From contig JBDRPD010000066.1 of NCBI GenBank assembly GCA_043827405.1, positions 1 to 64,000 on the forward strand: a stretch of DNA of 64,000 bases. Reading direction: 5' to 3'. This document shows, piece after piece, positions 14,001 to 17,000 of the stretch (within the stretch, counting starts at the first letter, position 1; each line of letters starts with the position of its first letter). The position numbers are program-made. This DNA comes from Elusimicrobiota bacterium (GTDB lineage: Bacteria; Elusimicrobiota; Elusimicrobia; UBA1565).

Positions 14001-17000
14001 TAGCCCCGGCCGCCGCCGAAAGTAAGACCGGCGAAGCGGGTGGCGAAATGCGCGGTGAACGACTCGTTCGCGAAGTCAAACGAATCAATGCGCATCTCAA
14101 ACTTTACGACATGAGGGACTACGAGCCAGGTACAGTAAAATTTCCCATCAAGCCGAATGTCCGTCGGTGAATGAACCTTGAGTACGGCGGTGCCGTTGGT
14201 GCAGGCATCCGGGATGAAGAGCACGGTCGACCAGGGGCGCAGTGCGAGCTTGATCTCGGATTTCTCCCGGTCGATATACAGTACGTCAGCGATGCGAAGA
14301 GAGGAAATCTTCCCCGGGAGCGGGGGTAGGCTGGTCAGGACCCAGAAGCGCACCCCGCGCCACCCTCGCGTGCGCGTCTTGGGTTTTGAACGGTAAAACT
14401 GAATTTCCGACATCTTATGCGAGCGAAAAAGCTTATAGATGCGGGTTAGGAGCTGCTCCTTGGAGCTCGCTGGCGAGCAGACTCCTTGGTCGCAAAGGGA
14501 GACCTCCGCGACCTTGACATGCTTGATGGAACATCCGGTCAAACAGAGCAGGGCCAGGAGCGGCAGGGCAAAGAAGAGAGGTGCGCGAGAACTCCGCATA
14601 TCAGGATGATACAAATTACTAGAGAAACCGGAATTTTGCGTTAAATCGAAGTTCCATACCCGGCCCAGAATCGCTAGAATAGTCATCTAATCAACCATGG
14701 CCCAGCAACCGCCCAACGTTTTTCAGAACCCCGAGATCGTCAAGCGCCTGCTGTTAACCTTGGGCTGCGTCACGGTCTATATCATCGGCCGCAGCATCCC
14801 GCTCCCCGGCCTGCATCCCGGCTATCTCGCGGCGATACTGTCCGGCGCGTCCGAGACGCCGCTGCGCTCGGTTTCGATCTTCGGGCTCGGCGTCGCCCCG
14901 TACCTGGGCGCCGCGGTGCTGCTTTCGCTGCTGCGCGCGACCGGCCGCATCGAGGCGCTGGCGGGACGGGACGCCGAGGGGCGGCGCGGCATCTACCGGG
15001 CCGCGCGCCTGCTCGCCGCGGTCTTCGCCGTCGGCCATGCGGCGCTGCTGACGATCGGCATAGCGGGCGCGCCGGCCGCGACACTTGAGACGGGCCTGCG
15101 CTTTTTCGTGCCGGCGGCCGCGACGCTTGCCGCCGGGGCGATGCTTGTCCTCTGGCTGGCCGAGGAGATCTCGGAGAATGGGGTCGGCAGCGGCGTGCTG
15201 CTCATGCTTTTTGTCGATATCGCCGCCAAGGCCCCGGGGGGTATCGCGACGCTCAATACGCTCGTCAAAAACGAGGACATCGGGATGCCGGCCGCCCTGG
15301 GGATCGCGGCGCTGGTTCTGCTGGCCCTTTACGCCGCGGTCTTCATCGAATCGGCCCAGCGGAAGATCCCCGTGCAGTACGCCAAGCGCGTCATCGGCCG
15401 GATGATGGTCGGCGGCCAGCAGACGACCGTTCCCGTCAAGGTGAATCCCGCGGGAGTGCTGGCGCTTATCGCCGCGGCGACCGTCGCCGCCTGGCCGGCG
15501 GCGCTGTCCGCGGCGCTGCGCCATCCGGCCTTCTATTTCCCGCTGTTCGCGGCGCTCGTCGTTGTTTTCAGCCGGCTCTATCGGACTTCCGGCGTCGACC
15601 CCCGCGAGCTTACCGGCCAGATCCAGCACAACGGAGGCTTCATCCTCGGCATCCGTTCGGGCGACGCCATGGTCGGGTACTTCTCCCGGCTGCTTGAACG
15701 GCTTTCGCTGAGCAGCGCTATTCCCGTCGCCGCGGTCGCCGTCGTGCCGGCGGCCGCGCTGCGCCTGACCGGTTCCTCGGCGGCGCTCGGCGAGGTCTCG
15801 ATCTATTTGCTGGCGGCGGTGGCGCTCGATTTCGTCGGGCAGGTGCAGGCCCGCGCCATGATGCAGAACCTCGGCGGCAGCCTGCCCAAGCCCGGAAGCA
15901 TGAAAAGCGGCGGCCAGCGTCAGCGGCCGCGTTCGTCGAAGCGCCGCAAGAAGCGGCGATGAGCGCCGCGTATTTTTGACGCGCCGGGCGCAATAAGGTA
16001 CTCTGTATACGACATCCGTTTCCTGCCTGCCCCATTCATTACCAAAAGGCGAAAACGCATCACCCTGGACGCGATTGTGCGCCCAATGGATGAAAGCGGG
16101 GATTGACGTTCCCTGAAGGTGCCAGTATCAGCGGAGCAGGTTATGAAAATACAGTGCGAAGCTACCACCCTTGCCTCTACGTATTCGGACGCTCACCGGT
16201 GTTGCATGAAAATAGGGATTAAGAAGGTCGGGAAGAAGCATCTCTGTGTTCATCATCAGAATATGGCGGCTAGAAAGCGGCTATAAATTTCGTGTATTGA
16301 CGTTCTCCCGCAGTTCATCTATTCTTCCTAATGGCTCGACGAACCATGCCCGTCTGGATGGCGCTTCCTCTGCGGGTGCTGCTGACCGCGCTGGGCTTAT
16401 TCGCCTCCTTCCTGCCGCGTTCCGTCGAGGTATTCTGCGGCCCCTTGCTCGGGCGCCTGGCGCTGTCGTTTGCGGGCAAGCGGCGGCGTACCGCCGAGGA
16501 GAATATCCGCCGCTGTCTCCCCGAACTGAGCGCAGGCGAGCGGCATAAGCTGTTGTGGAAGAACTGCGAGCATTGGGGGATGATCGGTTTTGAGTTTATG
16601 CACCTGTTCTCCCCGCTTCCCGGCCACTTCGCCCGCTACGTGAAGAAGAACTCCGTGCTGCACGACTTCGCGAATTGGCAGAAAGCCCATGCCAAGGGGA
16701 AGGGCGCTATCATTGTGGGCTGCCATGCCGGGAACTGGGAGGTGGCCTCGGCCGCCGGGGCATTGGCGGGAATGCCCTTCATGATCGTCACCCGATCCCT
16801 CACGCCGGAATGGCTGATGAAAAAGATCGAGTCGTCCCGCCTGCAGGCGGGCCTGCGCGCCGTGTATCAGCCGCGCACTTTGCCGGCGCTGCTCCGCGCC
16901 CTGAGGAAGGGGGAGACCGTGGGCTTTGTCATCGACCAATACGCCGCGCCCCCCATGGGCGTTAAAGCGCGCTTCTTCGGCTACAGCGTTGACACCCTCG

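Follow-up and report, generated by a model that had tools for sequence, protein, structure and literature searches.

Absence of the signal recognition particle across sampled Elusimicrobiota, a tail motif on their housekeeping SecY and a second, plug-shortened SecY in one family

SRP, the signal recognition particle, is regarded as universal, and in E. coli it is essential; as a rule it guides ribosomes to the membrane. Among the organisms already described as lacking Ffh, FtsY and SRP RNA are E. minutum, listed as without SRP RNA and protein, Dehalococcoides and tiny endosymbionts (PMC4779614) and, according to the available part of another report, Leptospira (PMC10066597). Elusimicrobia have been placed in the same group, with few members having SRP homologues, and the sequences of that study include an Ffh and an FtsY under the label Elusimicrobia (PMC7987157). 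We analyzed a stretch of 64,000 nucleotides (the window; positions 1 to 64,000 of contig JBDRPD010000066.1, assembly GCA_043827405.1) from a genome placed in Elusimicrobiota that carries a second, divergent secY (secY2). The initial annotation had remarked that the SRP loss was partly in print; these reports bear this out, and the loss is not new in outline. What is added here, from 301-401 genomes of about 35 families, some larger than 4 Mb, is a phylum-wide result in place of a passing remark, in which what had looked like exceptions are assigned to FlhF.

The genome had been reported to contain no SRP54-type GTPase domain. We scored all 57 of its candidates for PF00448 and found P-loop fragments only, in agreement with that report. 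When E. coli Ffh and FtsY were searched against 46,019 six-frame ORFs of at least 50 aa, the best E-values were 0.07 and 0.24, respectively, and the positive controls RpsP and FtsE were recovered. The slot preceding rpsP, which ffh normally occupies (with the E. coli gene order as reference), was empty in this genome and also, within the flanking sequence retrieved, in five other lineages. Across the phylum, neither the Ffh M domain (PF02978) nor the Ffh/FtsY N domain (PF02881) was found in 301 genomes (controls 14/14 for each; all candidates scored in the genomes listed). PF00448 matched in 2 out of 401 genomes, with seven candidates scored per genome. Both of these genes sit behind flhA and both products scored best as FlhF (TIGR03499), one with 223 bits (cut-off 174) and the other with 169 bits, just below it, while falling far under the ffh and ftsY cut-offs. 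Because of this location and best match, the 423-aa protein that had been the sole exception in an earlier sample (absence in 120 of 121 genomes) is not an SRP protein, and the absence is stronger than first stated. As a separate observation, rimM was likewise missing across the whole sampled class, indicating that the lineage sheds other 'core' genes.

The RNA searches were consistent with the earlier statement that no SRP RNA was detectable. RF00169 reached 22 bits at best in the genome (150 of 368 candidates scored) and was not found in 81 phylum genomes, in 30 of which every candidate was scored. A search of the genome by nhmmer with E. coli ffs gave no match. The helix-8 motif of SRP RNA matched the E. 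coli ffs control exactly and had no exact match in the genome, where it occurred at five sites with one mismatch and at 118 with up to two. Ranking of the motif sites by predicted fold was dropped since the E. coli ffs control failed it, and for three candidate loci Rfam returned only sub-threshold, unrelated matches. We are highly confident that Ffh, FtsY and SRP RNA have been lost in Elusimicrobiota, probably in the common ancestor. The initial annotation concluded that co-translational SRP targeting appears lost in the lineage; the SRP loss held in all sampled genomes, but co-translational targeting itself is not necessarily lost with it. With SRP apparently gone phylum-wide, membrane proteins must travel by a route not yet described.

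Single copies of secE, secG, secA, yidC, tig and secD were confirmed in the genome, as listed initially, and the claim that SecA2 is absent also stood, with one secA in this genome (G000). SecA was present in 61/61 genomes; in the 31 whose termini were inspected, the N-terminus was ordinary and the zinc-binding tail present. YidC was found in 60/61, with short tails in the 30 that were read. In the source genome uL23 (99 aa), uL24 and uL29 were of normal length. These observations remove a SecA2 or remodelled SecA, a YidC with an Oxa1-like tail as SRP substitute and, for the source genome, a long-armed uL23.

The feature that does track the phylum, missed by the initial annotation, is a motif at the end of the housekeeping SecY tail. 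By DNA pattern, the tail ended in RW[FY]N in 176 of 201 phylum genomes, covering 72 of 76 genera, and two of four inspected misses carried a varied motif (RWFK, RWY). All 55 canonical SecYs taken from top-scoring loci had it. When 185,579 species genomes were scanned, 75 of the 80 matches listed were titled as Elusimicrobiota lineages, and the motif occurred in 2 of the 150 nearest SecY 50% cluster representatives. The motif follows the SecA-binding Tyr-x-x-Phe at a distance of about ten residues, in a region disordered in the predicted model, and is absent from all three SecY paralogue types. Its lack of a match in the SecY supplement of PMC7987157 is uninformative, since the rows there are incomplete and gapped. 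Canonical SecY was 59-84% identical across the phylum and is thus not fast-evolving. As far as seen, RWFN and the SRP loss have a single origin each, so that finding them together counts as one event rather than as a correlation.

In the window, secY2 (14697..15962, + strand) is an intact open frame of 421 aa with ten predicted membrane helices. Its assignment as a SecY paralogue was upheld by PF00344 (205 bits; cut-off 32.2), and it also scored 205 bits with the equivalog model TIGR00967, under the cut-off of 253.6. BLASTP gave 33% identity (143/431) to the canonical SecY (C60:62264-63595) and not the 36% given earlier; the earlier 29% for E. coli SecY agreed with the 28-29% that we obtained against E. 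coli SecY chains. The AlphaFold model (pLDDT 61, pTM 0.56) matched SecY chains 5aww_Y and 5gae_g by Foldseek with a TM of 0.71, and a search of the ESM Atlas returned SecY clusters only. SecY2 keeps 23 of 43 invariant SecY positions, and its helices are Ala-rich, with the hydropathy of most of them as high as in canonical SecY. Paired with SecE, the prediction scored 0.66 against 0.00 for the best control, with contacts agreeing by at least 94% and a partner pLDDT of at least 74; 116 of 157 solved pairs reach the mark used, as do 2 of 215 mismatched ones. Since the pair resembles solved SecYE, this score may reflect likeness rather than binding.

The plug region of SecY2 (residues 33-59; 14793..14873, + strand) is shortened by 11 residues and has lost its FSGG motif, and 26-28 residues are missing there in six relatives; Phe62 and Gly65 of the plug were kept in none of 12 SecY2 sequences, and residues 39-58 of the model had a pLDDT below 50. 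A lost plug can re-form from neighbouring segments, according to the part of the literature available to us. In TM5, Asp174 (15216..15218, + strand) replaces a near-invariant Gly, and the position is Asp or Glu in 12/12 SecY2. Asp174 is absent from the SecE-touching residues of the predicted pair and would appear to face the channel. Residue 293 is Arg or Trp across the family, and the TM7-8 loop is 18-25 residues shorter than in housekeeping SecY. All six aliphatic pore-ring positions are kept (V66, L70, V167, L171, I258 and L371), which we take to correspond to I82, I86, I187, I191, I278 and I408 of E. coli SecY. Cytoplasmic loop 6/7 (residues 218-253; 15348..15455, + strand) is among the best-conserved segments (71% identical between SecY2 sequences, 60% against canonical SecY), and its Arg235 (E. 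coli Arg255) is Arg in 12/12. Loop 8/9 (residues 296-335; 15582..15701, + strand) retains Gly313, Gly314, Gly318, Arg320 (E. coli Arg357) and Gly322. In the accessible portions of published work both loops contact SecA as well as ribosomes, so their retention cannot separate the two partners.

The C-terminal tail (residues 392-421; 15870..15959, + strand) has a degenerate Tyr-x-x-Phe, no RWFN and a polybasic end. The available part of PMC6599042 describes Tyr425/Phe428 of SecY as this SecA-binding motif, contacting the SecA scaffold domain, and we transferred these residues to SecY2 by position mapping. The Phe was kept in 0/12 SecY2 and the first position was Tyr or Phe in 4/12. The corresponding site of E. 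coli SecY lacks a Phe as well, so the loss in SecY2 need not abolish SecA binding. The last 20 residues of the window protein carry a net charge of +11; the tail was +9 to +12 in 11 of 13 SecY2 sequences and the basic tail was missing in the other two. Moderately basic tails are frequent among ordinary SecYs, and a run with at least eight K/R in 12 residues was found in one of 150 others (nearest cluster representatives).

Outside the spc operon, where the C60 copy occupies the rplO-secY-adk slot, secY2 lies between a divergent gene for a Peptidase_C14 caspase-domain protein (12650..14686, - strand; probable start 14599) and a downstream gene that matches the LpxL family of lipid A acyltransferases (16331..17251, + strand); neither neighbor was seen beside SecY2 in three relatives. 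The neighbors of SecY2 differ among G000, G002 and G011/G016, and in genus g3 two genomes have SecY2 followed by two genes for phospholipase D-like and adenylate-kinase-like proteins with signal-peptide-like leaders. We ruled out secY2 as cargo of the adjoining integrated element, because it lies 2 kb outside the outermost remnant, a tRNA-Met 5'-half (12602..12640, - strand), and its GC3 tracks the host. A 159-nt RNA-library contig from one study matched 14575-14733 exactly; being strandless and spanning the starts of both divergent genes, it is uninformative on secY2 transcription.

Extra SecY copies were confirmed in 4 of the 17 genomes of the family, and none were found in 24 genomes sampled from two sister families. 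A SecY2 profile detected the SecY2 family in 3 of 401 phylum genomes, all of one family; two SecY matches per genome, with weak best E-values, were seen in nine further cases and treated as split genes, and a tenth genome, G387, carries a separate paralogue with most of the plug present. No related loci were found when the genome contigs were searched with SecY2. In a quick tree, from which 15 near-duplicate outgroup rows and rows below 330 aa had been removed, the SecY2 sequences formed one clade (support 96) on a long branch. Three within-genus pairs (genus g3) had dN/dS values of 0.13-0.32 at dS above 1, and G000 against G002 gave 0.51, near saturation. The frames were open in all copies, and the substitutions and the tail were conserved family-wide. 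Judged from these coding sequences, secY2 is under purifying selection.

We propose that the single housekeeping SecYEG and YidC would receive membrane proteins independently of SRP, either from ribosome-bound SecA or because ribosomes or mRNA dock directly on the cytoplasmic face of SecY; the likeliest route appears to run through SecA or through ribosomes that dock directly on SecYEG. RW[FY]N could be a short docking motif serving this route, with SecA or the ribosome as the most likely partner, a reading that we hold at a little under even confidence. SecY2 would be an optional duplicate that shares the sole SecE and keeps the pore ring and the ribosome-side loops, having shed the SecA anchor along with the plug and the periplasmic loops; its polybasic tail may hold ribosomes. 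By analogy with Oxa1 and its ribosome-binding tail, SecY2 is tentatively viewed as a SecA-independent co-translational insertase, a suggestion that we rank slightly lower than the docking motif. SecY2 is not the phylum's SRP replacement. The three layers taken as a whole (SRP loss, an SRP-free route with RWFN and a SecY2 insertase) make a plausible account that falls just short of even confidence. It is doubtful that the phylum replaced SRP by a rebuilt translocon tail, in which RWFN captures SecA, the ribosome or another factor, with one family adding a plug-less, SecA-free SecY insertase that grips ribosomes by its polybasic tail. RWFN and the polybasic tail are two small, mutable features through which the question can be addressed in vitro or in E. 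coli strains depleted of SRP, and cultured members of the phylum exist.

At the level of the phylum, a highly divergent SRP that escaped detection is barely credible: the RNA searches scored part of the candidates in the larger genomes, the assemblies are mostly gapped and two sequences labelled Elusimicrobia are in print (PMC7987157), but three protein domains were missing in 301-401 genomes, several of them single-contig, while the more distant FlhF was detected. Highly improbable, too, is that SecY2 compensates for the SRP loss throughout the phylum, as suggested for 'long-branch' SecY in PMC7987157. Oxa1, which replaces SRP by a basic ribosome-binding tail, and a ribosome-binding YidC variant that permits SRP loss in S. 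mutans are precedents within the portions of those sources at hand. SRP, however, is missing in all genomes whereas SecY2 occurs in three, so it cannot be a general substitute, and the canonical SecY is not fast-evolving. The link that the initial annotation implied between SRP loss and the second SecY was thus unsupported as a general explanation and is refuted by distribution, although SecY2 could help locally. SecY paralogues like SecY2 probably explain the published long-branch SecYs, and the 'fast-evolving SecY' idea probably rests on such paralogues. A more serious rival to the docking motif, only somewhat less favored than it, is that RWFN may be an inherited phylum signature or serve another factor, unrelated to the SRP loss, which would be cushioned by general means, for example chaperones, a slowing of translation or the localisation of mRNA. 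Partial buffering of this kind is described for E. coli and yeast in the available part of PMC10066597, one shared ancestor accounts for both traits, and rimM is gone too; against this, a motif in a disordered tail that persists in 72/76 genera beside the SecA anchor, and in no paralogue, is unlikely to be neutral.

As for SecY2 itself, it is unlikely to be an accessory export channel working with the housekeeping SecA on special proteins, in the manner of streptococcal and staphylococcal SecY2. The intact pore ring and both SecA-contacting loops would suit such a role, as would the leaders on the next two gene products in the two g3 genomes, but there is no second SecA, the accessory SecY2 profiles score far below cut-off (87/353 and 83/250 bits), the neighborhood differs in G000 and G002, and the SecA-binding Phe is lost in 12/12. 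We consider it equally unlikely that SecY2 no longer moves proteins, serving as a ribosome or mRNA tether or decoy, or as a solute or ion conduit opened by plug loss. The lost or shortened plug, the new family-wide charged helix residues (Asp/Glu174; Arg or Trp at 293) and the Ala-rich helices point in this direction, and E. coli SecY loops can bind mRNA (PMC10066597, in the part available), yet all ten helices and six pore-ring positions are kept and most helices match canonical SecY in hydropathy. A decaying duplicate would fit the long branch, the limited retention of invariant positions and the patchy distribution; the open frames, the g3 dN/dS values and the substitutions and tail conserved across the family make it very unlikely.

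Compared with housekeeping SecY (PF00344, TIGR00967; 5AWW, 5GAE, 6ITC), SecY2 shares the ten-helix fold, the pore ring, loops 6/7 and 8/9 and a predicted SecE interface, and differs by the Asp in TM5, the shortened or deleted plug, the lost SecA-binding Phe and the polybasic tail; the canonical SecY of Elusimicrobiota in turn adds RW[FY]N. The SecA2/SecY2 system of Streptococcus and Staphylococcus (bioRxiv 10.1101/202358) likewise pairs the housekeeping SecY with a second, divergent copy but, as the accessible text describes it, differs from the present case, where there is no SecA2 and no conserved substrate cluster. SecY2 scored 82.8 bits with TIGR02920 (cut-off 249.6) and 86.7 bits with NF009082 (cut-off 353), and the tree sets it, as an independent duplication, on the side of the order, a placement that the long branch makes unsure. 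The route that we propose for the housekeeping channel has a precedent in E. coli, where SecA mediates the co-translational targeting of RodZ; this concerns one substrate in the portion of that report at hand (PMC5674894), whereas here the whole membrane proteome would need serving. SecY2 may be likened to Oxa1 and to YidC2 of S. mutans (PMC8321541, PMC10066597, PMC8546722; each available in part) in the proposed principle of a C-terminal tail that holds the ribosome, with the difference that here the YidC tails read are short and the basic tail is carried by a SecY.

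The genome studied, G000 (4.33 Mb, 98% complete), is a member of the Elusimicrobiota, and the window lies on its contig C66. SRP is absent from this genome. PF00448 matched P-loop fragments only and no SRP GTPase, and E. coli Ffh and FtsY searched against all 46,019 six-frame ORFs gave best E-values of 0.07 and 0.24; RpsP and FtsE, used as controls, were recovered in the same search. The initial annotation had worried about PF00448 candidates left unscored, and this was answered with the M domain of Ffh and the N domain of Ffh/FtsY, chosen because they have few decoys. Each was detected in 0 of 301 phylum genomes (each at least 90% complete), with controls recovered in 14 of 14. 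PF00448 matched in 2 of 401 phylum genomes, both times downstream of flhA, and we rejected these matches as SRP GTPases because both are FlhF; the flagellar flhA-flhF clusters are L045 (genome G158) and L046 (G335). The SRP RNA model RF00169 was found in 0 of 81 phylum genomes, in 30 of which all candidates were scored. We found no exact match in G000 to the helix-8 motif of SRP RNA, which E. coli ffs matches exactly. The loss claimed in the initial annotation is real and stronger than first stated.

The loss was also, as that annotation had said, partly known. Excerpts of PMC7987157 report few Elusimicrobia with SRP homologues, place several of their SecYs on long branches and suggest compensation for the loss, and a passage of PMC4779614 describes E. 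minutum and Dehalococcoides as missing both SRP RNA and protein. A single observation speaks against the loss: PMC7987157 includes an Ffh and an FtsY that carry the label Elusimicrobia.

In E. coli, ffh occupies the slot before rpsP, whereas G000 has a different gene there, and in five other lineages the retrieved flanking sequence showed no ffh before rpsP. The rpsP-khpA-trmD-rplS operon (G000:C12:11769-13581) is missing rimM, which was found neither elsewhere in G000 nor in 43 other sampled genomes of its class; 45 of 101 phylum genomes have rimM, often its C-terminal half only. At G000:C108:29050-31301, dnaX and recR stand side by side, with no gene the size of ybaB separating them, and neither a tRNA nor an SRP RNA is present upstream.

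The genome has one SecA, SecYEG, SecD, YidC and trigger factor. SecA is ordinary, the single YidC has a short tail, and uL23, uL24 and uL29 are of normal length; SecA2, reported missing earlier, was likewise not found in G000. Among other sampled genomes, SecA-like domains occur in open frames of 7,136 and 7,327 aa (G054:C99:15472-17064 and G044:C38:17237-19345), and weak second YidC-like matches in frames of 840 and 908 aa (G082:C7:120427-120768 and G092:C11:23718-24284).

The housekeeping SecY carries RW[FY]N at its C-terminus, about ten residues past the SecA anchor. The motif was present in 55 of 55 top-scoring SecY loci, and a strict DNA pattern for it matched 176 of 201 genomes and 72 of 76 genera; the reversed pattern, run as a control, gave a total of 2 hits. 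Four misses were inspected: two had RWFN behind a different upstream stretch and two had RWFK or RWY. Among the 80 matches listed for a DNA pattern of the canonical tail, 75 were titled Elusimicrobia or Endomicrobia lineages, 4 only 'bacterium' (SecY 61-80% identical to that of G000), and one was a 1.8-kb contig titled Pseudomonadota. Of the 150 nearest SecY representatives (50% clustering), 2 had the motif, one 65% and the other 50% identical. The predicted model shows the tail as disordered (pLDDT <50 for 425-443), which suits a short partner-binding motif. RW[FY]N is missing from all three SecY paralogue types.

One of these, SecY2, is a 421-aa protein encoded at 14697-15962 of the window (plus strand), with 33% identity to the canonical SecY, whose gene lies within the ribosomal-protein operon on contig C60 (62264-63595). 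We aligned 13 SecY2 proteins, comprising the G000 copy, three from genus g3 and nine metagenomic proteins (56-82% identity, one partial); one SecY2-type protein names an Elusimicrobia bacterium as its source. SecY2 retains six aliphatic pore-ring positions (E. coli numbering), loop 6/7, which is 71% identical among its members, and the key arginines of the two cytoplasmic loops. Its plug region is shorter by 11 to 28 residues and its TM7-8 periplasmic loop by 18 to 25, Asp or Glu replaces a conserved Gly of TM5 in 12 of 12 full-length members, and the tail has a net charge of +9 to +12 in 11 of 13. It lacks the Phe of the C-terminal Tyr-x-x-Phe, which binds SecA in a Geobacillus structure according to a passage of PMC6599042. 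The predicted structure has ten helices and a TM score of 0.71 to SecY structures, at a modest pLDDT of 61. A predicted complex with the only SecE of the genome, with contacts agreeing at least 94% and partner pLDDT at least 74, scored 0.66 against 0.00 for the best control, which may only mirror likeness to solved SecYE; of solved pairs 116 of 157 attain the score mark, of mismatched pairs 2 of 215.

Three SecY2 pairs taken within a genus gave dN/dS values of 0.13, 0.26 and 0.32; for G000 against its relative G002 the value was 0.51, with dS near saturation. The dN of SecY2 is three- to sixfold higher than the canonical SecY value. All SecY2 fall into one clade, with support of 96, whose long branch attaches on the order's side, away from the outgroup, with unsure placement. 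SecY2 occurs in 4 of 17 family genomes, bearing out the earlier count, and an even draw of 401 genomes across the phylum contained it in 3. We thus consider it, on sequence grounds, functional but optional, and it cannot explain how the phylum lives without SRP. Its gene neighbours are conserved only inside genus g3, where in two genomes phospholipase D-like and adenylate-kinase-like proteins that each combine a signal-peptide-like leader with a Pro/Thr/Ser-rich linker are encoded directly behind it (L041:2779-5811 and L042:7224-10328). In G000, positions 1-12640 of the window and G000:C39:166777-167829 hold one or more elements integrated at tRNA-Met(cat), with three 37-41 bp copies of the tRNA 5' half on the minus strand (at 6338-6378, at 8848-8884 and at 12602-12640). 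At its start the window shares 141 bp with the end of C39, an overlap that falls within an integrase-like frame recognised by eye; C39 also carries the complete tRNA-Met(cat). Two separate SecY paralogues of independent origin were seen in the order (L044:5890-7215 in G016 and L272:1438-2697 in G387); one is very divergent, one has most of the plug, and neither has RWFN or a polybasic tail.

Because 4 of the 20 Elusimicrobia rows in the SecY alignment of PMC7987157 are paralogue-type and canonical SecYs from all over the phylum share 59-84% identity, the published long branches are probably paralogues, as judged from the alignment rows. Three of the four rows are without the plug segment, like genus-g3 SecY2, and the fourth is similar to a third SecY copy of G016. 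No description of SecY2 or the tail motif was found in the literature searched, a scope largely outside subscription journals; new here are how complete the loss is, the probable attribution of the long branches to paralogues, the RWFN motif and the anatomy described for SecY2.

Ribosomes translating membrane proteins could reach SecYEG through SecA, a route with a precedent in RodZ of E. coli (excerpts of PMC5674894). Alternatively, they might dock straight onto the loops of SecY, which bind mRNA according to parts of PMC10066597, where Leptospira is named among SRP-less bacteria. RWFN would reinforce the contact of SecA or the ribosome with SecYEG. SecA delivery or direct docking, with RWFN strengthening the contact, strikes us as plausible, if not quite probable. 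It is a serious possibility that RWFN is unrelated to the SRP loss, because motif and loss each appear to have arisen once.

That SecY2 itself is a decaying copy is very improbable. A role as an accessory export channel is unlikely, and one as a tether or solute conduit equally so. SecY2 appears to have lost those parts that serve sealing and export by SecA, while retaining its ribosome-side loops and acquiring a basic tail. This would fit an insertase tethered to ribosomes much as Oxa1 is, the likeliest of these readings, if somewhat short of probable; the principle that we propose the two would share is the tethering of an insertase to the ribosome.
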